NCBI GenBank assembly: GCA_045602385.1
Contig: JAZSBL010000023.1
Coordinates: 34,598-98,597 of the forward strand
From: Eubacteriales bacterium
Lineage (GTDB): Bacteria > Bacillota > Clostridia > Oscillospirales > CAG-272
Length of the DNA stretch: 64,000 nt
Direction: 5' to 3'
Under the pieces are notes generated by a model. The model made no database searches, was not told where the DNA came from, and saw only the letters and a program-made list of their open reading frames with translations. Within the stretch, counting starts at the first letter, position 1. The number at the start of each line of letters is the position of its first letter. The position numbers and the translations under genes are program-made. Shown piece after piece: positions 1,982 through 48,312 of this stretch.

Positions 1982-3229
1982 TTATATCTTATCAAATCCG
2001 TCGAGGAAAGACGGGTAAGATTTATTTATAGCCTCAAATCGGCTTATTTTTACTGTATTTTTGCATACGAGCGACGCGATAGCCGCGCTCATTGCTATGC
2101 GGTGGTCGTTGAAGGAGTCTACTTTGCCGCCCGTGAGAGTGGGCTTGCCGCGAATTATCATTCCGTCCTCGGTCTCGCGAATATCTGCGCCAAGCTCTGC
2201 CAAAACCGAGCAGACGCTCTCTATTCTGTCGCTTTCCTTTAAGCGTAGGCGTGAGGCGTTGTATATTCTCGTTTCTCCCTCTGCTACCGATGCGGCAACC
2301 GAGAGGATGGGAACAAGGTCGGGAATGTCTGCGGCATCTATGTTGATACCGCGCAGCTTGGTGGGATAAACGGTTATTCCGCTCTCGGATACGCGTATTT
2401 CCGCGCCCATCTTCGATAGGACGCCAATGATGGCTCGGTCGCCCTGCGCGCTTCTTTGGTCGAGACCTTGGAGCGTTACGGGATTCTGACCGATCGCGCC
2501 CGCGCAAAGGTAGAAGGCCGCATTGGACCAGTCGCCTCCGACGGTAAACGAGGAGGGGGAAGTGAGCCTTTTTTTGCCGTTTATATAGAAGGTATTATCG
2601 TCAGGGTTGAATTTTACGTCCGCGCCAAAGGCGAGAAGCGTATTCAGGGTCATAAATATATAGGGTGCCGACTCTACGTTGCCCTCGAGCCTGAGTTTGC
2701 TTTCGCCCTCTGCTATTGCGAGCGCGAAGAGCAAGCCGCTTATATACTGAGAGGAGATATTAGCCGCAACCGAGTAATCTCCCGCCAAAAGCTTGCCCGA
2801 AATGTGGAGTGGGCTTTTGCCTTGCTCGGTGAGCGTTACGCCGTTATCCTCAAGCAGCTCGTAAAGTGGGGAGAGGGGACGAGAGGCAAGTCTGCCGCGC
2901 ATAATAAACGAGCATTCCGCTCCGAGTGATGCGCAGAGCGGGAGCATAAAGCGGAGTGTTGAGCCCGATTCGTTACAGTCAAGCTCATTTGCCTTTGCGG
3001 GTGTGTTGATGGGCTTAACATCAAAGCCGTCTGCGGTACGGCGGATATCCGCGCCAAGCGCATTCAAGCAGGATGCGGTGGCATCTATATCCGCATTGGT
3101 ATCGGTACAGATTATTTTTGTTTCTCCGTCGGAGAGAGCAGCGCAGATAAGCGCACGATGCGCCTCGGATTTTGAGGAGATGGCGCGTACCGTTGTCTTT
3201 GCCGACGGGTTATTGAACAGCATATCCAT
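1982..3229 (-). CDS. aroA: 3-phosphoshikimate 1-carboxyvinyltransferase (EPSP synthase)
   Basis: SKSEAHRALICAALSDG, STLRFMLPL and DHRIAMSAAIA are EPSPS hallmarks. Start moved to ATG 3229 (MDMLFNN), 1 nt past the aroB stop. The track start at 3259 is a TTG inside aroB. Confidence 0.93.
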   Translation of the reverse strand: MDMLFNNPSAKTTVRAISSKSEAHRALICAALSDGETKIICTDTNADIDATASCLNALGADIRRTADGFDVKPINTPAKANELDCNESGSTLRFMLPLCASLGAECSFIMRGRLASRPLSPLYELLEDNGVTLTEQGKSPLHISGKLLAGDYSVAANISSQYISGLLFALAIAEGESKLRLEGNVESAPYIFMTLNTLLAFGADVKFNPDDNTFYINGKKRLTSPSSFTVGGDWSNAAFYLCAGAIGQNPVTLQGLDQRSAQGDRAIIGVLSKMGAEIRVSESGITVYPTKLRGINIDAADIPDLVPILSVAASVAEGETRIYNASRLRLKESDRIESVCSVLAELGADIRETEDGMIIRGKPTLTGGKVDSFNDHRIAMSAAIASLVCKNTVKISRFEAINKSYPSFLDGFDKI

Positions 3230-3230
3230 C

Positions 3231-4280
3231 TTAAAGCCCTGCCTTGAAAATTTCTTCAAGTGAGTCTACGGACACCTTATAGAGCCTTGAATCACCGATT
3301 CCGTAGGGCATGACGAGGGTTATGCTGCCGCCCTGGCGCTTTTTGTCGTTAAGGGCGATGTCTGCAAGACTTTGCGCGGTGTATGGACATTCGGTAGGCA
3401 GACCGTAGGACCTGATAAGCGAGATCGCCTCGGCGCAGTCCTCTTTACTGCACAATCCGAGAGAGTTAGCCGCGCGGAGTATTATTGCCATTCCAATAGC
3501 AACGGCGGAGCCGTGAGAAATCGAAAAATCCGAGAGGATCTCAATAGAGTGTGCCGCTGTGTGGCCGAGATTTAGGAGCTGTCTTACTCCTGTGTCGCGC
3601 TCATCCGCGTCAACGACGTCACGCTTATTGCAGACGCAATTTTCGATAACATCCTCGATTTGGGGGAGAATAGGAGCTTTTAATTTCTCAAAAAGCTCGC
3701 GGTCGTTTATAATACCGTATTTGATGACCTCCGCGCATCCGTCGGCAAAGACGTCACGGGGCAGTGTCGAAAGCGTTTCGTAGTCACAAAGGACAAGCGA
3801 GGGCTGATAGAATGCGCCTACGAGATTCTTGCCTTCGGGAATGTCGATCGCTGTTTTGCCGCCGACAGAGGAGTCTACCATAGCAAGCAGGGTAGTGGGG
3901 ATCTGAACAAACTCAACTCCGCGCAAATAGGTTGCCGCGCAAAATCCGCAGAGGTCGCCGACAACTCCGCCGCCAAGGGCGAAAAGGCAATCCGAGCGGG
4001 TTATTTTATTCAAAGCCAGGAAAGACAGAAAGGCAAGATAGGATTCCGCACTTTTAGATGTTTCTCCCGCGGGAATGACGTAGGATACGACCTCGTAGCC
4101 CGCAGAACGAAGCGAGACTTCGAGTCTTTCAAGATAGAGGGGAGCTACGTTTGAGTCGGTAAGCACCGCCGCGCGGCAGGGCTTTTTGACGGTGGAGCAA
4201 AGCTTGCCTGCACGGTCGAGGATCCCCTTGTCGATTATTATATCGTAAACGCGAGACGCGTTGACTGTGACCTTTTTCAT
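3231..4280 (-). CDS. aroB: 3-dehydroquinate synthase
   Basis: 349 aa. GGGVVGDLCGFCAATYLRG, VDSSVGGKTAID and NLGHTAAH motifs of DHQ synthase. Confidence 0.94.
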   Translation of the reverse strand: MKKVTVNASRVYDIIIDKGILDRAGKLCSTVKKPCRAAVLTDSNVAPLYLERLEVSLRSAGYEVVSYVIPAGETSKSAESYLAFLSFLALNKITRSDCLFALGGGVVGDLCGFCAATYLRGVEFVQIPTTLLAMVDSSVGGKTAIDIPEGKNLVGAFYQPSLVLCDYETLSTLPRDVFADGCAEVIKYGIINDRELFEKLKAPILPQIEDVIENCVCNKRDVVDADERDTGVRQLLNLGHTAAHSIEILSDFSISHGSAVAIGMAIILRAANSLGLCSKEDCAEAISLIRSYGLPTECPYTAQSLADIALNDKKRQGGSITLVMPYGIGDSRLYKVSVDSLEEIFKAGL

Positions 4281-5215: not shown

Positions 5216-6217
5216 TCAAATCGTGTCACGCACTTTTCTGACCGAGTTCATAACCGCTGCAAACTCGTCGGGAGTCAGTGACTGCGGTCCGTCGCAAAGC
5301 GCTTTTTTGGGGTCGTTGTGAACCTCTATCATTAGTCCGTCCGCTCCGCATGCCGCCGCAGCCATGGACATGGGGGCAACAAGGCGCGCCGCTCCCGTGG
5401 CGTGCGAGGGGTCGACGACGACGGGGAGGTGCGTGAGCTCGTGAAGCACGGGGATTGCCGAGAGGTCAAGCACGTTACGCGTGTACTGTGAGTCATAAGA
5501 GCGGATACCGCGCTCACAAAGAATGATATTCTCGTTGCCTCCTGCCATGATATACTCTGCGGACATAAGCCACTCCTTGATTGTTGCCGAGAGTCCGCGC
5601 TTTAAGAGTATGGGCTTCTGAATTCTGCCAAGCTCTTTGAGAAGCTCGAAGTTCTGCATATTTCTCGCGCCAACCTGAATAACGTCAACGTTTTCAAAGA
5701 GGGGAAGATGCTCTGCGCTCATGATCTCTGTAACGATAGGAAGGCCTGTCTCGCGTTTTGCCTCAAGGAGAAATTCGATACCCTCTGCCTTAAGTCCCTG
5801 GAAATCGTAGGGCGAGGTGCGGGGCTTGAACGCGCCGCCGCGGAGCATTGTTGCACCTGCCGCCTTGACTGCATTGGCTACCTCAATGACCTGCTCACGG
5901 CTTTCAACCGAGCAGGGGCCCGCCATTACCGCGAAAATGTTGCCGCCCACGCTTGTATCTCCGATATTTACGACGGTATTATCGGGGTGGAACTTGCGGT
6001 TCGCGCTCTTGAATGGCTCTGAGATGCGCTTTACCGTTTCAACTATGTCAAGGCTGATAAGCAGATCCTCGTCGATGCGGCTTGTGTCGCCCACAAGACC
6101 TACTATCGTCTGATAGTCACCCTTTGAGAGGTGGACTTGAAGTCCCTGCGCCTCTATCCAATTTTTAAGGTCTGCTATTTGTTTATCGCTTGTTCCGCTT
6201 TTAAGTACTGCAATCAT
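5216..6217 (-). CDS. aroF: 3-deoxy-7-phosphoheptulonate (DAHP) synthase, class I-beta with N-terminal regulatory domain
   Basis: MIAVLKSGTSDKQIADLKNWIEAQG is the ferredoxin-like regulatory domain. It is followed by GPCSVES, RGGAFKPRTSPY and DPSH core motifs. Start at ATG 6217 with SD AAGGCGGA. The longer track ORF (to 6349) is an upstream extension. Confidence 0.92.
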   Translation of the reverse strand: MIAVLKSGTSDKQIADLKNWIEAQGLQVHLSKGDYQTIVGLVGDTSRIDEDLLISLDIVETVKRISEPFKSANRKFHPDNTVVNIGDTSVGGNIFAVMAGPCSVESREQVIEVANAVKAAGATMLRGGAFKPRTSPYDFQGLKAEGIEFLLEAKRETGLPIVTEIMSAEHLPLFENVDVIQVGARNMQNFELLKELGRIQKPILLKRGLSATIKEWLMSAEYIMAGGNENIILCERGIRSYDSQYTRNVLDLSAIPVLHELTHLPVVVDPSHATGAARLVAPMSMAAAACGADGLMIEVHNDPKKALCDGPQSLTPDEFAAVMNSVRKVRDTI

Positions 6218-6342
6218 GTCTTTGTCCGCCTTTGATGTGATTTTGAAATTAAAATAAAAACACCGAATGTAACAGCAATCTGCACTGTTGACACTCGGCT
6301 CATCCAAAAAGAAAATAAGTCTTGTCCGCAATAAATTTGCAT
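6214..6342 (-). promoter_or_regulatory. candidate 42-codon leader ORF (MQIYCGQDLFSFWMSRV...) overlapping the leader terminator and ending in ATGA overlap with aroF
   Basis: ATG 6342 is preceded by AAGGTGAT (7-nt spacing). Y4, F10, F12 and W13 codons sit just 5' of the terminator stem. The stop TGA overlaps the aroF ATG. There is a TATAAT at 6359..6364 on the minus strand. Confidence 0.3.
6251..6298 (-). terminator. intrinsic-terminator-like hairpin inside the aroF leader
   Basis: Minus-strand RNA CCGAGUGUCAACAG-ugcagauu-CUGUUACAUUCGG followed by UGUUUUUAUUUU, 34 nt upstream of the aroF ATG. Confidence 0.55.
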
Positions 6343-6555
6343 AGCACAAATCACCTTTATTATATTACGCTGCGTAATAGTAATAAAAGTAAAAGTATCC
6401 GTATGCAAAGCGTGCGTCAAGCATTCTCTTTTCTCTCCTTTTTTCTTGATATTAACAGTTTAGCACTCTGCGGGAGTGTTGTCAAGGGATTTTCCGAAAA
6501 AAATTAAAAATTCCTTATGATTAATGGTCTGAGGGAAATATATCATTGAAAAACA

Positions 6556-6584
6556 TTGACAAACGAACGGCAGGGTGATAAAAT
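6556..6584 (+). promoter_or_regulatory. sigma-A type promoter
   Basis: TTGACA (6556-6561), 17-nt spacer, TG-extended TAAAAT (6579-6584), upstream of the 6623 CDS. Confidence 0.6.
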
Positions 6585-6622
6585 GAACATATACAATAAA
6601 ATTTATCTTTCAGGAGGTCATT

Positions 6623-6889
6623 ATGGAATCTTTAAAGAAATTTTTCCCCATGTCGTGGGAGTACACAAAGGATGTTCCCAATTTGATCAAAGGAATTATT
6701 CTGTACGTGGTTGTGGGTCTTCTTGCGAGTGCGCTTATCGCCCTTTCGGGACTTATCACGGGTTGGATACCTGTAGTAGGTGCAATCGTCGGAATCGTTC
6801 TCAGGCTTGCAGGCGCGCTTGTTGACGTATACGTCGTAGCCGGAATAGTTATTCAGGTGCTTGTTTACACAAAGGTTATCAAGGACTAA
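6623..6889 (+). CDS. small integral membrane protein (2 predicted TM helices), function unknown
   Basis: 88 aa. SD CAGGAGG 6 nt upstream. Two hydrophobic segments (IILYVVVGLLASALIAL, VVGAIVGIVLRLAGALV). Hairpin terminator follows at 6904-6934. Confidence 0.7.
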   Translation: MESLKKFFPMSWEYTKDVPNLIKGIILYVVVGLLASALIALSGLITGWIPVVGAIVGIVLRLAGALVDVYVVAGIVIQVLVYTKVIKD

Positions 6890-10733: not shown

Positions 10734-12320
10734 CTATTTTTCGGTTATGTTTGCCGCGTCCTCGCCGAGTATTGCGACCAGCTTTTCTTTGGTCGATTTT
10801 TCGTCAAAGGTGGTACAGCGTAAATGCAGAATATCTCCCTCGTGTATTGCTTTGACCGCGCGCTTGTCGCGCATGTCAAGTGGCAGTGTATGCTTGTGTG
10901 AAAGAACGAACGTGCCGTTTGGCCAGAAAATATCACGTATGTGCATGCCCTCTGCAAAGGCATTCTTGCTTACGGTTACGTAGCCTTCCAAAAACTTCTG
11001 CTCTCGGCCCGCATTTATCTCGTGGGCGAGGTTTTCAAGGACTCGGTCGTTAATGGATTCCGCACCGAATATTTCGGTTATAACAAACGCTACGCCCGCC
11101 GCGATTATGACGAATATCACGTTATCGTAGCAGGAGAGAGCTTCAACCGCGAAGACTATTGCGGTCAGGGGCATTTTCATCATTCCCGCGATGCAGGCGA
11201 TGATTCCGATGATTATGATTACCGTATAATAGGATGGGTCAAGTCCCCAGATCATATCTATTACGGTGGCAATTATGCTTGAAAGAAGCGCGCCTATCGC
11301 CATCAATGGCAGGAAGATACCGCCTGTTACACGATTGGAATTGGCGAAAAGCGTAAGCGTAGAGCGGACTACCAAAAGCAGGAAAAGTATTAAAAGGGGA
11401 GTTTTTACGTTGATAAGATCAAGTATCAGCTCGTGACCTGTGGAGATGGTAGAGAATGATATTAGTCCTGCGGCAAACGTTAGCGCAAACACGCTGAAAA
11501 TGCGCAGGCCGTGAGGTATGCCGTTCAAGATCTTATTGGAAAACTTGAATATTACCTTATAATAGGTCAGGAAAAGGACCGCGAAAAGTCCCATTACCAT
11601 GCCGACAAGCAGAGGTATCCACACGTCTTTGATAGAGAGCGTGGGGAGCTGCATTGCAGGGAAGAGCGTTTTGCTGACGCCGAGGATCGGCGCAACTATT
11701 TCGGTAGTCATGCACGCGAACATTACCGATGTAGAGGCGATCATAAGTATCATGGGAGATATGCGCTGATGCGCCTCCTCAATCGCGAAGAGAATACCCG
11801 ATATGGGTGCGCCTGTCGCAACTGCAAAGCCGGAGCATGCTCCGCCCGTCATCGAATATCTGTCCCACGCGCGGTGCTTTTTGCCAAATGAATACACGCT
11901 GCCGCGTCCGATTGCTACGCCCATCTGGACCGAGGGTCCCTCGTTTCCAAGCGGCACGCCGATGAAAAATGACACAAGCGACATGGAGAATATTCCTATA
12001 AGGTTTCGCAGCCACTTGAATGATATTATTCCGCGCAAAATACCGATAGAGGTCGGAATTCCACCTCCGCGAAGATTGGGTATGCGCTTATATATGTACG
12101 CGAACAGAAATGCGGGGACGATGAAGGCGATAAGCGCTATGGGAATGATATAGAGATGCTCACCTACAAAGTGGTAGCTTTTCTCGGAAAAAGTGATGAT
12201 ATACTTTGCGCACGCCTTATATAGGTTGACGGCGAGTGAGGTCAGGACACCCGTCAGCGCGCCAAAACAAACTGCGGGCAATATTGAATTAAAAAATGAA
12301 TTCCAGGACTTTGATTTCAT
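10734..12320 (-). CDS. ClC-family voltage-gated chloride channel / H+-Cl- antiporter with C-terminal RCK-C-like domain
   Basis: GGGIPT, GNEGPSVQMG and GAPISGILFAIEE are ClC selectivity-filter motifs. Start moved to ATG 12320 (MKSKSWNSFF, SD GGGAG). Confidence 0.88.
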   Translation of the reverse strand: MKSKSWNSFFNSILPAVCFGALTGVLTSLAVNLYKACAKYIITFSEKSYHFVGEHLYIIPIALIAFIVPAFLFAYIYKRIPNLRGGGIPTSIGILRGIISFKWLRNLIGIFSMSLVSFFIGVPLGNEGPSVQMGVAIGRGSVYSFGKKHRAWDRYSMTGGACSGFAVATGAPISGILFAIEEAHQRISPMILMIASTSVMFACMTTEIVAPILGVSKTLFPAMQLPTLSIKDVWIPLLVGMVMGLFAVLFLTYYKVIFKFSNKILNGIPHGLRIFSVFALTFAAGLISFSTISTGHELILDLINVKTPLLILFLLLVVRSTLTLFANSNRVTGGIFLPLMAIGALLSSIIATVIDMIWGLDPSYYTVIIIIGIIACIAGMMKMPLTAIVFAVEALSCYDNVIFVIIAAGVAFVITEIFGAESINDRVLENLAHEINAGREQKFLEGYVTVSKNAFAEGMHIRDIFWPNGTFVLSHKHTLPLDMRDKRAVKAIHEGDILHLRCTTFDEKSTKEKLVAILGEDAANITEK

Positions 12321-12431
12321 GGCTTCTCCCGTGGTGTTGTGTGTATTCCACGCCGCGCGGCGGGGAAGGTATAGGTATATTTTAGCATATTTTGGAGAAA
12401 AAATCAAGACTCCCAAGCTAAAGCCGGAGCA

Positions 12432-12572
12432 TCAAATCAATATAATATAAAATGCTTTGCAATGGTTGATACTGCCTTCTCTCAAATTTCTCTGCCGACA
12501 ATTCTCTAAATACTGGTTACAGCCCTCCTCAAAAGTGAGCGTTACACCCCTTGCCATTTTTATCTTTTGCAT
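12432..12572 (-). pseudogene. 5' fragment of a tyrosine integrase gene (N-terminal SAM-like/core-binding region only)
   Basis: Below the ORF track size cut-off. Strong SD AAGGAGG, then ATG 12572. Translation MQKIKMARGVTLTFEEGCNQYLENCRQRNLREGSINHCKAF matches my recollection of Firmicutes phage/ICE integrase N-termini (TFEE..FL..C+.+NL...TI..Y). It then degenerates to a stop after 46 codons. Confidence 0.55.
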
Positions 12573-12694
12573 CGCAAAATCCTCCTTATTTGCGTATTTA
12601 TAGAAATATATTTAATCACCATTGTATATTGCATTTTGCCAAAATTTGTGCTATAATGATTTTGTCAAAAAACAACATGATAGGAGAAAATGAC

Positions 12695-13531
12695 ATGTCA
12701 AACGTATGTGTAATCACCGGTGGCGGAAGCGGTATGGGCTTCGAGGCTGCAAAATTTATGCCTAAGGATAAAATAATCGTTATTTCCGGCAGAACTCTTG
12801 CAAAGCTTGAGGGCGCAGTTGCAGAATTAAAGGCTCTTGGATACGAGGCGTATGCAAAGGTATGCGATACCTCCAAGCGAGAAAGCGTTAAGGTGCTTGC
12901 AGAATATGCGGCATCTCTCGGCGAAATCAAAAACGTAATCAACTCTGCAGGTGTTTCTCCGGCAATGAAGGGCACTCCTGAGGGAATCCTTCGCATCAAT
13001 GCACTTGGAACTGTTTACGTAAATCAGGAGTTTTCAAAGCTGATGGGGGCGGGAAGTGTTATCGTTGATGTTTCGTCTAACTCTGCGTACATTCTCCCTT
13101 CGTTCATCATCAACAAGAAGCACTACGTGTTCGCTGAAACCAACGAAGAATTGTTCCTCAAGAAGCTCGTTAAGAAGAGCGGAATGGCAAAGGGTGAATA
13201 TCAGCAGAAGGGCTTTGCATACTCGCTTTCCAAGAACTTCGTGGTTTGGTATGCTAAAAAGTGCGCGTTTGAGTACGGCCTTCGCGGAATTCGCGTAGTA
13301 TCCCTCAGCCCCGGACTTATTGCAACCGATATGGGTAACCTTGAAAAAGAGGACGGCGGAATGCTTATTCCTTTCTCCGCAGAAGAGAGAATGGGTAAGC
13401 CCGAGGAGCTTGGATTTGCACTTGCAACTGTTGCTGATGAGCGCAACGGATACCTTGCAGGCGTTGACGTTCTTTGCGATGGCGGAAGCACTAACGGTAT
13501 GAAGGAATTCAAAAAGTCCAAGAAGAAATAA
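12695..13531 (+). CDS. short-chain dehydrogenase/reductase (SDR)
   Basis: ITGGGSGMG (TGxxxGxG) and YSLSK (YxxxK). Start moved to ATG 12695 (MSNVCVITGG). Promoter TTGCAT-17-TATAAT just upstream. Confidence 0.85.
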   Translation: MSNVCVITGGGSGMGFEAAKFMPKDKIIVISGRTLAKLEGAVAELKALGYEAYAKVCDTSKRESVKVLAEYAASLGEIKNVINSAGVSPAMKGTPEGILRINALGTVYVNQEFSKLMGAGSVIVDVSSNSAYILPSFIINKKHYVFAETNEELFLKKLVKKSGMAKGEYQQKGFAYSLSKNFVVWYAKKCAFEYGLRGIRVVSLSPGLIATDMGNLEKEDGGMLIPFSAEERMGKPEELGFALATVADERNGYLAGVDVLCDGGSTNGMKEFKKSKKK

Positions 13532-13563
13532 TTCCAAATTACAATAGCAAGATGATAAAAATA

Positions 13564-13612
13564 TTGGACACATCATAAGCGAAAATACGTTTATGATGTG
13601 TCCAACTTTTTT
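13564..13612 (+). terminator. intrinsic terminator of the SDR gene
   Basis: 15-bp perfect stem TTGGACACATCATAA / TTATGATGTGTCCAA followed by CTTTTTT. Confidence 0.85.
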
Positions 13613-13687
13613 ATTTGTGATTTTGGGCGAAATGAGTTTTACAAAGCTTTCATAAAGCCCTGCAAACCTCAAAAAGCCTTACGCCGC

Positions 13688-13746
13688 AAGGATTACTTGC
13701 TTGCTTCTTCGATAGCAACTGCAACAGCAACGGTCATACCAACCAT
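13688..13746 (-). repeat. direct repeat copy A: displaced copy of the last 17 codons, stop and 8 nt of the GGGtGRT gene
   Basis: 55/59 nt identical to 14995-15053. Encodes MVGMTVAVAVAIEEASK*. All 4 differences are third-codon-position synonymous changes. Confidence 0.9.
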
Positions 13747-13749
13747 AAA

Positions 13750-13992
13750 TTATTTTATTTCTTGCTCCAAATTATCAAAAAGAGGAGATGTGAAGAAGTC
13801 GAGAATGGTAATCTCCAATCCGTCGCAGATTTTTTGAACGGTTGAGACCGTGGTTGTAGCATTGGGTCTGCTAATAACGTTATTCAAGGTCGACTGCGTG
13901 ATACCGCAGATAGTGGATAGCTTATTCAAAGTAATATTGTTTTGTTGACACAACTCCAAAATACGCAACTTCACCGCTTCGTTAACTCTCAT
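13750..13992 (-). CDS. XRE-family helix-turn-helix transcriptional regulator (80 aa)
   Basis: ITLNKLSTICGITQSTLNNVISRPN is an HTH_3-like segment. Paralog of 48070-48312 (shared ...CDGL.I....FF.....LEQEIK C-terminus). Confidence 0.85.
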   Translation of the reverse strand: MRVNEAVKLRILELCQQNNITLNKLSTICGITQSTLNNVISRPNATTTVSTVQKICDGLEITILDFFTSPLFDNLEQEIK

Positions 13993-14003
13993 TTCGCTCT
14001 CCT

Positions 14004-14114
14004 AACTCAAATGGGTTAACTATATTTTACCCCATAAAAAGACAAAAAATTACCCTTTTAGGGTTGACAAACTCAAAAGGGTGTGTTATAATGGCAACAT
14101 AACTCAAAAGAGTT
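14004..14114. promoter_or_regulatory. divergent switch region: three operator-like repeats plus a consensus promoter
   Basis: AACTCAAATGGGTT (14004-14017), AACTCAAAAGGGTG (14070-14083) and the palindromic AACTCAAAAGAGTT (14101-14114). TTGACA (14064-14069), 17 nt, TATAAT (14087-14092) faces the + genes, with O2 filling the spacer. Confidence 0.65.
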
Positions 14115-14145
14115 AACTTAAACTATCTTTCCGGAGGAGAATCAA

Positions 14146-14286
14146 ATGTCAAAACAAATCACATTTAACCACAATGATCAGGAACTGATCAAACAAATTG
14201 AGGAATTTCAAAAATCGAGTGGACTACCATCCTTCATATCTGCTGTGCGAAAGCTTTGCGCGGATGCTCTTCAACTTAAAAAATAA
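14146..14286 (+). CDS. 46-aa protein, function unknown (Cro/antirepressor position in the switch)
   Basis: Below ORF-track cut-off. SD GGAGGAG 6 nt upstream of ATG 14146. Translation MSKQITFNHNDQELIKQIEEFQKSSGLPSFISAVRKLCADALQLKK. Confidence 0.5.
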   Translation: MSKQITFNHNDQELIKQIEEFQKSSGLPSFISAVRKLCADALQLKK

Positions 14287-14308
14287 CAAAATAATTGGAG
14301 GAAATGAA

Positions 14309-14875
14309 ATGAAAAAGCATTTTAAACTATTGTCTTTAGTATTGTCTTTTGTTGTTGTTTTATGTTCAATATCATTTACTTCTTGCGTATCTGAAGAAGA
14401 AACGAAAACAGCACTGACTTTAGAAAATGTAGAAGATTATTTGACTATTAATGATGAAATATTAGATTATAATATTGATGTAGAATATGATTCCATCTAT
14501 GGACTCCGCATTCCAAATTATGATGATAGCTACGGAAAAGCACAAATTGTCATAAATAAAAAATCATCCAATTTGAGTTTTGAAGATGTTGAACTTAAAT
14601 TAAGGGTATCTGTGGACGCTAACAATCCATATCCATGGCAATTCAAGAACAACAATTCCGTTGAAAATTATGAGTATAACGGCAAGGTATATAAAGATAT
14701 GCTCGAAAACTGCACTTATCTTAATTTAACAATACCATATACAGGTGAATATTCCAAAGATTTAGACTTAATAATTGGTCGAAACCAAGACAGCAAATCT
14801 TTACTCGACACAAGCGACTTAAAATCCCTATCAATAAAAATTATCAGTGTTAGCGGATATGTCATAGAAGAATAA
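14309..14875 (+). CDS. lipoprotein, function unknown
   Basis: MKKHFKLLSLVLSFVVVLCSISFTSC has a lipobox (FTSC). SD TGGAGGAAA. Start moved from track 14198 to ATG 14309. Very AT-rich codon usage relative to neighbours. Confidence 0.75.
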   Translation: MKKHFKLLSLVLSFVVVLCSISFTSCVSEEETKTALTLENVEDYLTINDEILDYNIDVEYDSIYGLRIPNYDDSYGKAQIVINKKSSNLSFEDVELKLRVSVDANNPYPWQFKNNNSVENYEYNGKVYKDMLENCTYLNLTIPYTGEYSKDLDLIIGRNQDSKSLLDTSDLKSLSIKIISVSGYVIEE

Positions 14876-14880
14876 TAGAC

Positions 14881-14913
14881 AAAAAGCAGAAACCAGCACG
14901 GTTTCTGCTTTTT
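14881..14913 (+). terminator. intrinsic terminator
   Basis: AAAAAGCAGAAACC-agca-CGGTTTCTGCTTTTT. Confidence 0.85.
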
Positions 14914-14994
14914 AATTAAATTAAGATTTTTCAAAAGCATCCTTACCTAGTCCGCGGATGACCGATGGTCTCCCCTACGAAACCATTATAAATT

Positions 14995-15053
14995 AAGGAT
15001 TACTTGCTTGCCTCTTCGATAGCAACAGCAACCGCAACGGTCATACCGACCAT
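14995..15053 (-). repeat. direct repeat copy B (functional 3' end of the GGGtGRT gene)
   Basis: See 13688-13746. This copy is contiguous with the intact CDS. Confidence 0.9.
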
Positions 15054-15998
15054 GGGGTTGTTACCTGCGCCGATAAGTCCCATCATCTCTACGTGTGCGG
15101 GAACGGAGGAGGAGCCTGCGAACTGTGCGTCGGAGTGCATTCTTCCCATTGTGTCCGTCATACCGTAGCTGGAGGGGCCTGCAGCCATGTTATCGGGGTG
15201 AAGTGTACGGCCTGTTCCGCCGCCCGATGCAACAGAGAAGTAGCTTACGCCGTTCTCAACTGCCCACTTCTTATATGTTCCTGCAACGGGATGCTGGAAG
15301 CGTGTGGGGTTGGTGGAGTTACCTGTAATGGAAACGCCAACGTTCTCAAGCTTCATGATAGCAACGCCCTCGGGAACGTTGTCAGAGCCGTAGCATCTTA
15401 CGTCTGCTCTGGGACCCTTGGAGAAGGGAACCTCGCGAACGATAGTAACTTCCTCTGTGTAGGGATCAAACTTTGTCTCTACGTATGTGAAGCCGTTGAT
15501 TCTGGAAATTATGTAAGCTGCGTCCTTACCAAGACCGTTGAGGATAACGCGGAGGGGCTTTACGCGAACCTTGTTTGCGTTAAGTGCGATCTTGATCGCG
15601 CCCTCTGCAGCCGCAAAGGACTCGTGGCCGGCGAGGAAGCAGAAGCACTCTGTCTCCTCGGAAAGAAGCATCTTGCCGAGATTACCGTGGCCGAGACCAA
15701 CCTTTCTGTTCTCTGCAACAGAACCGGGAATGCAGAAGGACTGAAGACCGATACCGATAGCGGCAGCGGCGTCAGCAGCCTTTGTGCAGCCCTTCTTGAT
15801 TGCGATAGCTGCGCCTACTGTGTATGCCCACTTTGCGTTCTCAAAGCAGATGGGCTGTGTTTCCTCGACGATCTTGTAGGGATCGATGCCCTTAGCATCG
15901 CAGATCTCCTTGCACTCGTCGATGGAGTTGATACCGAATTCCTTAAGAGCGGCGAGTATTTTCGCTTCTCTTCTTTCGTAACCTTCAAACTTAGCCAT
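15000..15998 (-). CDS. GGGtGRT-family protein (uncharacterised conserved family)
   Basis: 332 aa containing the eponymous motif SGGGTGRTLHPDN. SD AAGGAGG. Confidence 0.85.
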   Translation of the reverse strand: MAKFEGYERREAKILAALKEFGINSIDECKEICDAKGIDPYKIVEETQPICFENAKWAYTVGAAIAIKKGCTKAADAAAAIGIGLQSFCIPGSVAENRKVGLGHGNLGKMLLSEETECFCFLAGHESFAAAEGAIKIALNANKVRVKPLRVILNGLGKDAAYIISRINGFTYVETKFDPYTEEVTIVREVPFSKGPRADVRCYGSDNVPEGVAIMKLENVGVSITGNSTNPTRFQHPVAGTYKKWAVENGVSYFSVASGGGTGRTLHPDNMAAGPSSYGMTDTMGRMHSDAQFAGSSSVPAHVEMMGLIGAGNNPMVGMTVAVAVAIEEASK

Positions 15999-48069: not shown

Positions 48070-48312
48070 ATGAATACATATACGGCTGTTAAAATTAGAC
48101 TTTTAAAATTGTGTGACGAGAAGGGCGTTTCTATTCATAAGCTTGCGATGGATTCCGCTGTCCCGCCCTCTACAATAAAAAATATATTGTACGGAAAGAG
48201 CAGGAATCCCGGTATTGTAACCCTTAAAATGCTTTGCGACGGACTTGGTATATCACTTATCGAGTTTTTTAATGCAATTGAGTTTGAGCATCTTGAGCAG
48301 GAGATCAAATAA
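48070..48312 (+). CDS. XRE-family HTH transcriptional regulator (80 aa), paralog of 13750-13992
   Basis: VSIHKLAMDSAVPPSTIKNILYGKS is the HTH. C-terminus LKMLCDGLGISLIEFFNAIEFEHLEQEIK parallels the other copy. SD AAGGAGG. Confidence 0.85.
   Translation: MNTYTAVKIRLLKLCDEKGVSIHKLAMDSAVPPSTIKNILYGKSRNPGIVTLKMLCDGLGISLIEFFNAIEFEHLEQEIK

Follow-up and report, generated by a model that had tools for sequence, protein, structure and literature searches.

The window analyzed here, a 64,000-nt stretch of a contig from an Eubacteriales bacterium, contains on its reverse strand an intact gene for a GGGtGRT protein, the end of which is followed by a bracketed insert of 1,248 bp (13747–14994). The GC fraction of the insert ranges from 0.26 to 0.43, mostly 0.26–0.36, compared to 0.45–0.58 in the flanking genes. 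The GGGtGRT open reading frame (ORF) is covered over its full length by PF14057, and 10 further contigs carry genes for the identical protein. The insert encodes an XRE-family regulator, a 46-aa ORF and a putative lipoprotein as its only ORFs, and lies between two copies of the last codons of the GGGtGRT gene (Table 1).

Table 1 Features at and around the 3′ end of the GGGtGRT gene, in window positions
Feature	Position	Strand	Description
Remnant of the 5′ part of a Xer-like tyrosine integrase gene, 46 codons	12435–12572	-	tblastn matches to L103, L113, L001 and L003 at 76–84% identity
Older downstream region of GGGtGRT	13555–13691	-	Small terminator (13677–13691), spacer and conserved GGACACATCAT hairpin (13555–13614)
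Distal repeat copy (attR-like)	13688–13746	-	Native GGGtGRT 3′ end, displaced; adjoins native flank
XRE-family helix-turn-helix regulator, 80 aa	13750–13992	-	PF13443, 5.4e-09; PF01381, 1.1e-06; co-oriented with GGGtGRT; stop 3 nt from distal repeat
Switch region	14003–14118	.	Sigma-70 promoter (14064–14092, +) between palindromes 14003–14018 and 14100–14115
46-aa ORF	14146–14286	+	First gene of the operon, with control by XRE predicted; counterpart is a 49-aa ORF in L133 and L162
Cargo, putative lipoprotein, 188 aa	14309–14875	+	Hydrophobic leader ending in SFTSC, then lipoprotein-type Cys
Bidirectional intrinsic terminator	14880–14914	.	Cargo end of the cassette; 16-bp stem and T-runs; kept in L133
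Relic of a rubredoxin gene 3′ end, 35 nt	14921–14955	-	Reads GLGKDAFEKS and stop (translation and tblastn)
GGGtGRT-downstream sequence of another lineage's type	14956–14994	-	Small-hairpin relic and left half of a GTAGGGG-hairpin-CCGCGG motif (pattern scan)
Gene-proximal repeat copy (attL-like)	14995–15053	-	Last 17 codons, stop and 5 nt; probably element-borne
Intact GGGtGRT gene, 332 aa (target gene)	15000–15998	-	PF14057, E = 7.6e-191 over residues 4–330

Contents of the insert

The XRE gene is transcribed divergently from a promoter that is flanked by two palindromes, a layout that fits a phage-type switch between a repressor and a small regulator. The promoter is a perfect 12/12 match to the sigma-70 consensus with a TG extension. 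The two palindromes are the only matches to TAACTC-N4-GAGTTA in the window, and the pair is also kept in four other contigs (L133, L134, L138 and L148). Judged from the positions of the promoter and palindromes, XRE most likely binds both palindromes as operators, and such binding would hold the operon of the small ORF and the lipoprotein off until a signal lifts repression. A search for homologs of XRE returned 3,597 proteins, and the best 120 of these 3,597 span 79–81 aa (117 being exactly 80 aa) and are 83–94% identical to it.

The 46-aa ORF gave no informative match in Pfam, NCBIfam, PHROG or the PDB, and no Cro- or Xis-like match in family and PDB searches. Its assignment as a ribbon-helix-helix protein was a guess that none of these four collections supported, and was dropped. 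The lipoprotein matched no Pfam or PADLOC family and has only six homologs among 5.8 billion proteins. An AlphaFold (AF2) model built from six sequences has an all-beta topology with a pLDDT of 55, too poor for a fold search; we can only guess at a role in surface or exclusion functions. PADLOC gave no convincing match among eight XRE-cassette cargo proteins, while a neighbor of the non-XRE type in L001, a DUF2971 protein, matched PDC-S31 in PADLOC. The terminator behind the cargo folds as DNA at −14.8 kcal/mol (z = −7.6). An Rfam scan of 12300–15200 at E ≤ 1 returned chance matches only, so no known RNA accounts for the hairpins or the motif relic of this region. No protein encoded in the insert matched a recombinase family; the sequence-only reading had described the same gene content and the same lack of a recombinase.

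Origins of the two repeat copies

A repeat search returned the bracketing copies as a single 59-nt direct repeat with a start-to-start spacing of 1,307 nt. The copies are identical at 55 of 59 positions (93%), and agreement this close or closer would arise by chance somewhere in 64 kb with a probability of approximately 5e-19. Both encode MVGMTVAVAVAIEEASK followed by the stop on the reverse strand. All four mismatches (GTC/GTT, GCG/GCT, GCT/GCA and GAG/GAA) fall at codon position 3 and are synonymous, as had been claimed from the letters of the window, and the longest perfect run that the copies share is 17 nt.

Beyond the repeat, the two copies continue into different sequences. The flank of the distal copy is of the native type, with 37 of 49 positions identical to the related contig L003, and window 13746–13557 aligns to L003 6946–7135 at 90.5% identity. 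The proximal copy keeps a diverged homology to GGGtGRT 3′ flanks for approximately 40 nt beyond the 59 nt, to 14956. This flank is identical at 35–37 of ~53 positions to the post-stop flanks of three other contigs (L157, L095 and L132), compared to 26–29 for the distal flank of the window itself. By hand count, the proximal copy differs from the L003 allele at 6 of 54 positions and the distal copy at 3 of 54. These comparisons show that the gene-proximal copy is foreign and was carried in by the cassette, and that the distal copy is native, which agrees with the separate origins proposed for the two copies in the sequence-only reading.

An insert bracketed by direct repeats is also what a local duplication would look like, with 59 nt copied in situ at insertion, as a long target-site duplication, and then subject to drift. 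The course of the proximal copy into the GGGtGRT-downstream sequence of another lineage, rather than into DNA unique to the element, refutes this explanation. All four differences are synonymous, and analogous repeats at other loci are only 75–88% identical and yet still coding-like, which likewise argues against it, and we regard a local duplication as extremely improbable.

Empty sites in sister lineages

Eight related contigs (L001–L008), in which the GGGtGRT protein is 100% identical to that of the window, lack the module. In these contigs the GGGtGRT stop runs straight into a homolog of window 13692–13557, showing that an empty site exists. Identity to the window is 75–90% in this flank and 91–95% across the DNA of the GGGtGRT gene; because the related contigs are 5–9% diverged in DNA, the empty site comes from sister lineages and not from the same strain. 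The repeat was found to be neither an ancient duplication fixed in all relatives nor part of an unrelated, larger segmental duplication. Within the older downstream region, the GGACACATCAT hairpin folds at −19 kcal/mol (z = −9.4) and is found behind GGGtGRT at 22 of the 91 species loci.

The segment 13747–14994 and one of the repeat copies form a small cassette of foreign origin that was inserted into the last 17 codons of GGGtGRT and that encodes no recombinase. Since a copy of the gene end came with the cassette, GGGtGRT still encodes the full, unchanged protein, and the displaced native end remains joined to the native terminator and flank. The earlier proposal that an element integrated into the 3′ end and restored the gene with its own copy is thereby supported by the empty site and the foreign proximal flank, as well as by the integrases found at this gene end (see below). 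Exact-protein look-ups of XRE and the lipoprotein returned no match, so the same insertion has not been seen elsewhere.

A rubredoxin relic and the mosaic origin of the cassette

Window 14060–14955 corresponds to L133 4181–5079 at 86% DNA identity, and in L133 the alignment runs into a live rubredoxin gene. The XRE genes of the window and L133 are only ~69% identical, and the homology breaks at ~14060, inside the switch region. The cargo of the window also lies inside rubredoxin 3′-end duplications in the metagenome contigs L133 and L162, with a tandem arrangement in L163. Given the location of this cargo (86% DNA identity) within rubredoxin 3′-end duplications elsewhere, the module is a mosaic cassette that changed its target. 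Its cargo half (promoter, 46-aa ORF, lipoprotein and terminator) derives from a sister cassette at a rubredoxin 3′ end, of which 35 nt are retained as a carry-over from the earlier insertion site, and its XRE half is from a clade of regulators, 80 aa long, that other genomes carry downstream of GGGtGRT. The relic is a rare direct trace, within a GGGtGRT-bound cassette, of a small mobile unit switching its target gene. The two rubredoxin copies of L162 have an identical block of 21 nt in common, ending in CTGCG, the point at which the relic of the window begins. The rubredoxin relic, the mosaic origin and the integrase remnant of Table 1 are additions to the sequence-only reading.

Recurrent use of the GGGtGRT 3′ end

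Extra 3′ fragments of the gene are present in approximately 5–10% of the species-level GGGtGRT loci examined (L003, L006, L008, L010, L020, L045, L064, L084, L094, L119, L148 and L157). In L148, XRE cassettes are arranged in tandem, each followed by a GGGtGRT fragment, and L150, L157 and L111 likewise have XRE cassettes downstream of GGGtGRT. The orientation of XRE is that of GGGtGRT in all five such loci and that of the following fragment in 7/7 cases. Co-oriented tandem cassettes were found in L148, L157, L111, L142 and L163, and no fewer than 12 cassettes, often in tandem and with differing cargo, repeat the compact layout of cargo, switch and XRE. The repeats range from 14 to ~49 codons in length between loci. 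The P-side sequences adjoining XRE differ among the window, L134 and L148, and it is therefore not obvious that one dedicated recombinase would tolerate them all. More distant XRE relatives (55–70% identity; 80 metagenome loci) are mostly without bracketing repeats, the exceptions being terminator duplications of 27–28 nt in L167 and L182. The gene-end duplication is thus confined to the close and rubredoxin clades and does not extend to the whole XRE family.

Integrases occur at the same site. Full-length Xer-like integrases (305–322 aa) lie directly behind GGGtGRT and the hairpin in L017, L029, L103 and L131. The L029 integrase matches PF00589 at 2.5e-31 and scores 55 bits against TIGR02249, for which the cut-off is 265; its best matches are Xer-type models, all below cut-off. 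Arm-binding-type integrases are located directly behind GGGtGRT in the phage contig L011 and in L080. Remnants are present in the window, L001, L003, L084, L111 and L113; the L003 integrase is internally deleted and that of L020 is chimeric. The GGGtGRT 3′ end is therefore a recurrent attachment site for mobile DNA in gut Clostridia, used by at least two integrase families and by integrase-less cassettes. The window itself contains no active integrase, and none of the contigs examined joins this XRE clade and an intact integrase in one element.

The presence of these integrases bears on whether the cassette is a decay product, that is, a larger prophage, integrative and conjugative element (ICE) or IME with its own integrase at the GGGtGRT end, deleted down to a regulatory module, one accessory operon and attL/attR. 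Integrase-bearing elements do use this site (the phage contig L011, L080, L017, L029, L103 and L131), and decayed integrases are common there, including the remnant in the window and the damaged genes of L003 and L020. Exactly such remnants define CIMEs, deletion derivatives of an ICE or IME that retain attL and attR and lack integration and transfer genes (PMC5704250); here too, att sites are found without integration or transfer genes, and integrase-bearing elements at the same site. The boundaries of the cassette point the other way: 3 nt separate the XRE stop from one repeat, the other is directly adjoined by the terminator and relic, and pseudogene debris is absent. The recurrence of this compact layout across the 12 or more cassettes of differing cargo also argues against decay. 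The blastn searches of the module against a phage collection (50,697 records) and a plasmid collection gave no match, a single XRE relative at 44% identity was the only one in the viral contigs of IMG/VR, and the genes neighboring the module are chromosomal, with no adjacent phage genes. The sequence-only reading had proposed a search for intact elements carrying the XRE and lipoprotein module plus an integrase, and searches of homologs, phages, plasmids and metagenomes for a larger relative with the XRE and cargo unit found no such progenitor. We therefore consider decay unlikely. Between the two origins offered in the sequence-only reading, the recombinase-less unit is favored, as the unit is found again in the same compact form, both in arrays and at a second target, with neither phage genes nor phage or plasmid homologs, and the decayed prophage is disfavored.

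Route of insertion

The explanation that we hold to be the best overall, and probable, is a mosaic, integrase-less (CIME-like) cassette that was inserted at the GGGtGRT end in a site-specific reaction catalyzed in trans. The event would be directional, between a circular cassette, with an attP formed by the XRE stop, the pseudo gene end and the terminator, and the gene end. The predicted circle junction joins GAAATAAAATAATTT to ATGGTCGGTATGACC (13747 to 15053), and in a restored empty site 15054 would be adjacent to 13746. The likeliest candidate for the tyrosine recombinase acting in trans is the Xer-like family behind GGGtGRT and the hairpin in related genomes. As only a 46-codon integrase stump is left in the window, the cassette is probably immobile now. 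The same cargo at two unrelated target genes requires either two recombinases or homologous shuffling.

A search of the GGGtGRT end yielded no convincing core dyad. The dyad TAACAACC-CCAT-GGTTGGTA was rejected as a crossover core, since a mutated patch in the distal fragments puts the crossover downstream of it. The evidence is suggestive for a CCGCGG-centered double-hairpin motif, or for the GGACACATCAT hairpin, as the true site of recombination: the window has the left half of the motif, the right half follows XRE in L142–L147, and content diverges right after the hairpin. RNAalifold, applied to a MAFFT alignment, favored another fold.

Alternatively, no site-specific step took place in this genome, and the cassette was imported together with flanking GGGtGRT sequence by RecA-dependent homologous recombination, either through a double crossover (in the highly conserved gene at one end and in the stretch of fragment, flank and hairpin at the other) or through Campbell-type integration of a circle via 59 nt or more of homology. 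Relatives that share 91–95% of the gene in DNA and 100% in protein would provide long homology arms, to which the conserved flank and hairpin add. Repeat lengths that vary by locus are expected if the repeat is whatever homology the donor had, and the ~14060 breakpoint in the conserved switch region resembles homologous exchange between cassettes. Such import accounts for spread, but not for the first joining of a pseudo gene end to a cassette, and it leaves unexplained how the same cargo gained the ends of two unrelated genes. Moreover, 17 nt is a short longest run of identity between the repeat copies, and the relic starts where the 21-nt identity block of L162 ends, which points to a fixed crossover site. 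On balance, homologous import seems rather unlikely as the full account.

Relation to known systems

In Escherichia coli, the element e14 and phage 21 integrate into the 3′ end of the protein-coding gene icd and supply an alternative end, which keeps the gene functional. The icd ends that are displaced and those that replace them differ chiefly at synonymous sites, and both elements are prophage-sized and encode their own integrase and excisionase. The cassette described here likewise replaces the 3′ end of a protein gene, keeps the gene functional and leaves copies that differ synonymously, but the bracketed unit is 1.25 kb, has no recombinase and targets GGGtGRT.

The ICESt1/ICESt3 family of Streptococcus thermophilus targets the 3′ end of fda. 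As in CIMEs and in accretion at fda, the attL and attR here come from the 3′ end of a protein gene, integration and transfer genes are absent, and the cassette and the remnants of an integrase-bearing element lie in tandem, in arrays that expand as further units integrate at the gene end restored by each insertion. Unlike CIMEs, the cassettes have no ICE progenitor in sight and form a uniform family (XRE, switch and one cargo operon) with a second target in rubredoxin and signs of cargo exchange between the two targets. The ssrA islands of Dehalococcoides stack in tandem, each bounded by a direct repeat of the gene end. These genomic islands are specific for the tmRNA gene ssrA (PMC3146451). 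The cassettes share with them the tandem stacking at one conserved gene end with gene-end repeats, and differ in having a protein-coding target and no integrase, in contrast to the tmRNA target and own integrases of the islands.

Integron cassettes are small, single-function units in co-oriented tandem arrays, with a site-like repeat after each and a tyrosine recombinase at the array edge that acts in trans. Co-oriented tandem arrays in which each cassette is followed by a repeat were also found here. Unlike in integrons, the integrase is Xer-like and not IntI, a pseudo 3′ end of GGGtGRT or rubredoxin serves as the repeat in place of an attC hairpin, and the cassette, rather than being promoterless, comes with a 12/12 promoter and a repressor of its own. 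The pdif modules of Acinetobacter plasmids are recombinase-less units at 28-bp XerC/D sites, presumably moved by a recombinase encoded elsewhere, and the tycheposons of Prochlorococcus target tRNA genes, usually with integrases, in islands littered with partial copies of the target genes. A recombinase-less unit between short sites and partial target-gene copies around it are common to these systems and the cassettes. The site here is the coding end of a protein gene, which to our knowledge neither pdif modules nor tycheposons use.

A broader reading, which we put forward tentatively as a possibility, is that gut Oscillospiraceae, along with other Clostridia, possess an unrecognized system of cassettes to which the module belongs. 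The 80-aa XRE regulators, near-identical and numbering in the thousands, would each head a single self-regulated cargo operon, and the integrase-less cassettes would be inserted directionally at conserved 3′ ends (GGGtGRT and rubredoxin), each with a spare end. They would form arrays, swap cargo via the switch region and depend on the Xer-like integrase behind the hairpin in trans, making the system an analog of integrons with gene ends in place of attC and attI. If this is true, uncultured gut Clostridia would hold a large unexplored reservoir of self-regulated accessory genes (lipoproteins, membrane proteins and SHOCT proteins) and a recombination system of possible value as a tool; if it is wrong, the locus is still a clean, ordinary example of a CIME-like remnant.

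In either case, the attachment site is new, and the element is otherwise of a known 3′-end-targeting type. The titles and abstract openings of the retrieved papers that mention GGGtGRT contain nothing on integration, in agreement with the remark of the sequence-only reading that it was not aware of a described attB within a GGGtGRT gene. By the same titles and abstract openings, GGGtGRT, a highly conserved gene, features in a number of metaproteome papers on the gut and rumen. The locus shows how a gene of evidently important function is protected under repeated invasion, as each element comes with a spare end.

Gene-end repeat and module content

A repeat search of the window recovered one 59-nt direct repeat with 55/59 identity between its copies, a match whose computed chance in 64 kb is ~5e-19. 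The proximal copy is the 3' end of the full-length GGGtGRT gene (PF14057, E=7.6e-191) and the distal copy lies on the far side of the module. Both encode MVGMTVAVAVAIEEASK and a stop on the - strand, and all four mismatches fall at codon position 3; the sequence-only reading was thus correct on the repeat and on its synonymous divergence, as it was in describing the module as recombinase-less, since none of the module's proteins matched a recombinase family. GC content across the intervening 1248 bp is 0.26-0.43, mostly 0.26-0.36, versus 0.45-0.58 in neighbouring genes. Another XRE-type gene in the window is unrelated (35% identity to the cassette XRE) and showed no bracket repeat; it probably encodes an ordinary regulator.

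Coordinates of the cassette, its bracketing repeats and other features in the window
Feature	Position	Strand
Xer-like integrase remnant	12435-12572	
Short-chain dehydrogenase gene	12695-13531	+
Conserved hairpin	13555-13614	
Distal repeat copy	13688-13746	-
XRE HTH gene, 80 aa	13750-13992	-
Perfect sigma-70 promoter	14064-14092	+
46-aa ORF	14146-14286	+
Putative lipoprotein, 188 aa	14309-14875	+
Bidirectional terminator	14880-14914	
Rubredoxin-end relic, 35 nt	14921-14955	
Relic of GTAGGGG...CCCCTAC element	14956-14980	
Proximal repeat copy	14995-15053	-
GGGtGRT gene	15000-15998	-
Second XRE-type gene	48070-48309	

Empty sites and the origins of the two gene ends

The exact GGGtGRT protein is also encoded by ten other metagenome contigs (L001-L010) whose DNA is just 91-95% identical to the window, and synonymous-only divergence is therefore normal for this gene. 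The comparison with relatives yielded the anticipated empty site: in L001-L008 the module is absent from the GGGtGRT end and the stop codon directly joins the native flank, a homologue of window 13692-13557 made up of a small terminator, a spacer of ~100 nt and a conserved hairpin whose stem is GGACACATCAT. The distal copy is contiguous with this native-type flank (90.5% identity to L003) and is therefore the displaced native end. Related sequences were metagenomes and MAGs throughout, many of them short contigs, and included an Oscillospiraceae MAG related to the window organism (L030, 89% DNA identity).

The different origins proposed for the two copies are borne out by their flanks. Beyond the common TAATCCTT, the proximal copy runs on as AATTTATAATGGTTTCGTAGGGGAGACCATCGGTCATCC; this flank is identical to the post-stop GGGtGRT flanks of other lineages (L157, L095 and L132) at 35-37 of ~53 positions, versus just 26-29 for the window's own native flank, and L003 gives the best match to the distal flank (37/49). 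Over the 54 coding positions, L003 shows 3 mismatches with the distal copy and 6 with the proximal copy. Target-site or local duplication, which would derive both copies from the resident gene, is refuted by the foreign proximal flank and the unequal distance of the copies to L003. Judging from these comparisons, the gene end borne by the cassette was acquired in another host.

Recurrent use of the GGGtGRT end

The GGGtGRT end has been used recurrently, integrase-bearing elements included. A degenerate GGGtGRT-end pattern matched at least 120 species-level genome loci and also two viral contigs. The 121-kb viral contig L011 begins with a GGGtGRT end; behind it L011 encodes an integrase of 405 aa that has an arm-binding domain, and also an endolysin and tail fibres. 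Extra GGGtGRT 3' fragments (pseudo-ends), up to three per locus, lie 0.1-4 kb downstream in genome loci L020, L045, L064, L084, L094 and L119 and occur in metagenome contigs too (L003/6/8, L010, L148 and L157/158). The distal fragments of L148, L045 and L084 have a common mutated patch (ATGGTTGGT to C/TAGGT/CT..A) that brings in stops or a frameshift; the patch behaves like an element-side arm, which would place the crossovers downstream of it. L010 (1177-1330) has a GGGtGRT end with unusually divergent synonymous codons, then only 45 nt, containing AACAACCGCAGGTT, similar to the mutated arm of L148, after which the last 14 codons recur with the native flank attached, effectively a cargo-free attL-attR pair.

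Directly behind the GGGtGRT gene and hairpin, and co-oriented with the gene, lies a Xer-like tyrosine integrase of 305-322 aa (PF00589, E=2.5e-31; no arm-binding domain; below every NCBIfam cut-off), full-length in L017, L029, L103 and L131 and as remnants in L001, L003/6/8, L084, L111, L113 and the window. Among the matches listed, the integrase was present at 6/73 species-level loci whose downstream sequence reaches 2 kb or more, and the hairpin at 22/91 loci reaching 600 nt or more, about one species in four.

Homologues of the 80-aa XRE protein number 3597. The top 120 are 83-94% identical and span 79-81 aa in length, with 117 at exactly 80. Genomic contexts were examined for five close lineages. 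In L148, two tandem cassettes (cargo gene and XRE) lie directly downstream of GGGtGRT, with a pseudo-end after each; XRE cassettes also follow GGGtGRT in L150, L157/158 and L111, L134-141 carry one flanked by two decayed pseudo-ends, and L142-147 carry a single XRE protein with differing cargo. Cargo genes in these lineages invariably run opposite to XRE, which is co-oriented with the target gene at 5/5 loci and with the fragment after it at 7/7. Also conserved is the switch, which consists of a promoter and two TAACTC-N4-GAGTTA palindromes. XRE relatives at greater distance (55-70% identity, mostly human gut) lacked gene-end brackets, so that duplication of a gene end is a feature of only the close clade and the rubredoxin clade. 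XRE cassettes in L167 (4325-5470) and L182, at 65-70% identity, instead have copies of a 27-28-nt terminator of the upstream gene on both sides, and duplication of the target's end may therefore extend beyond GGGtGRT and rubredoxin.

A mosaic module with a relic of a previous target

A 5.8-billion-protein collection contained just six lipoprotein homologues, three of them placeable on contigs. In L133 and L162, a unit of XRE, 49-aa ORF, lipoprotein and terminator adjoins a rubredoxin gene and is bracketed by a duplication of its 3' end (76 nt at 78% in L133; a 21-nt perfect block with diverged flanks in L162), and L163 has two tandem cassettes with a rubredoxin pseudo-end in between. In a DNA alignment, the window from the -35 box (14060) to 14955 is 86% identical to L133, extending through the terminator into 35 nt that are the live rubredoxin gene end in L133 and still translate as ..GLGKDAFEKS and a stop in the window. 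Identity between the window and L133 cassettes in their XRE genes is just ~69%. The L133-like cargo half with its rubredoxin relic and the dissimilar XRE thus show a mosaic, in which a GGGtGRT-type XRE half is joined to a cargo half formerly at a rubredoxin gene. One breakpoint lies within the conserved switch; the other is the end of the L162 rubredoxin identity block, between ...CTGCG and GAC.

Mode of integration and relation to known systems

The GGGtGRT end in the window holds a foreign, integrase-less, self-regulated cassette that brought its own replacement gene end. A circular form would have been inserted site-specifically and directionally by a tyrosine recombinase acting in trans. 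The most plausible candidate is the Xer-like integrase that has left a stump 1.1 kb from the cassette. The XRE protein would repress the cargo promoter via the palindromes, and the cassette would now be a fossil.

The sequence-only reading had offered either a decayed prophage or ICE module or a recombinase-less satellite, and the satellite-like half is favoured. Decay of a larger element to a true CIME, with attL and attR kept, could have occurred, but the uniform recurrence of the compact unit speaks against it and the searches turned up no progenitor; phage and plasmid collections yielded no homologue of the module, and IMG/VR only one XRE relative (44% identity). Spread by homologous recombination across the conserved gene and its flank is likely, but this process alone cannot create pseudo-ends or account for two targets.

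Integration at protein-gene 3' ends is of a known kind: e14 and phage 21 target icd, ICESt1/3 and their CIMEs target fda, and the GGGtGRT cassette follows the same logic. The ssrA islands of Dehalococcoides stack in tandem. The CIME definition and accretion model are given in PMC5704250, and genomic islands at the conserved ssrA end in PMC3146451. Small cassettes arrayed in one orientation, with a recombinase at the array's edge, resemble an integron, but tests revealed no IntI-type integrase and no attC sites, and the cassettes are not promoterless. Among the papers listed as mentioning GGGtGRT, titles and abstract openings name no integration role for it, in agreement with the earlier remark that no description of an attB there was known to its author. 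What is new is the protein-gene attachment site and an integrase-less, regulator-headed cassette family at two target genes.

Hairpins, a palindromic element and the variable flank

The conserved hairpin has an invariant stem, (GTT)GGACACATCAT...ATGATGTGTCC(AA), with variable loops and A- and T-runs on either side. It occurs once in the 64-kb window and is therefore not a genome-wide repeat. It punctuates cassette arrays (L111, L142 and L157); the L142 array also has an L011-type integrase C-terminal fragment and a barnase/barstar pair (3220-3642 and 5831-6715), the pair bounded by these same hairpins.

A ~50-nt palindromic element, GTAGGGG-hairpinA-CCGCGG-hairpinB-CCCCTAC, lies 25-34 nt past the GGGtGRT stop in L072, L092, L095, L100, L111, L132 and L157/158. 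Its stems vary by locus yet stay complementary (GGGCGAAC/GTTCGCCC versus GGGTCATTC/GAATGACCC), and the L157 copy folds with z=-5. Only the left half remains in the window, where the relic matched no Rfam family, and only the right half in L142-147, after the XRE gene. The element could act as a 3'-UTR RNA, bind a protein or serve as a secondary recombination site.

The integrase gene starts ~25 nt beyond the hairpin. In the window, a dehydrogenase gene with its own promoter (within 12589-13554) is placed exactly between hairpin and integrase remnant, which are adjacent in L003. At the matching position, L103 (1117-2300) has a 189-aa gene with a copy of the integrase ribosome-binding site and start on either side (..AGGAGGATTTTTGTGA.. 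and ..CGGAGGATTTTCAAGGTGA..), which suggests a second insertion point at the integrase gene 5' end. Gene content diverges straight after the hairpin T-run among L001, L002, L003, L004 and the window, and this region behaves as a defence and variable-gene hotspot. Sister strains carry candidate anti-phage genes there (L001, L002, L005 and L007), among them a DUF2971 protein in L001 (7145-8011; PADLOC PDC-S31, E=1.5e-51) and type I restriction HsdR with a DUF4145 protein in L002.
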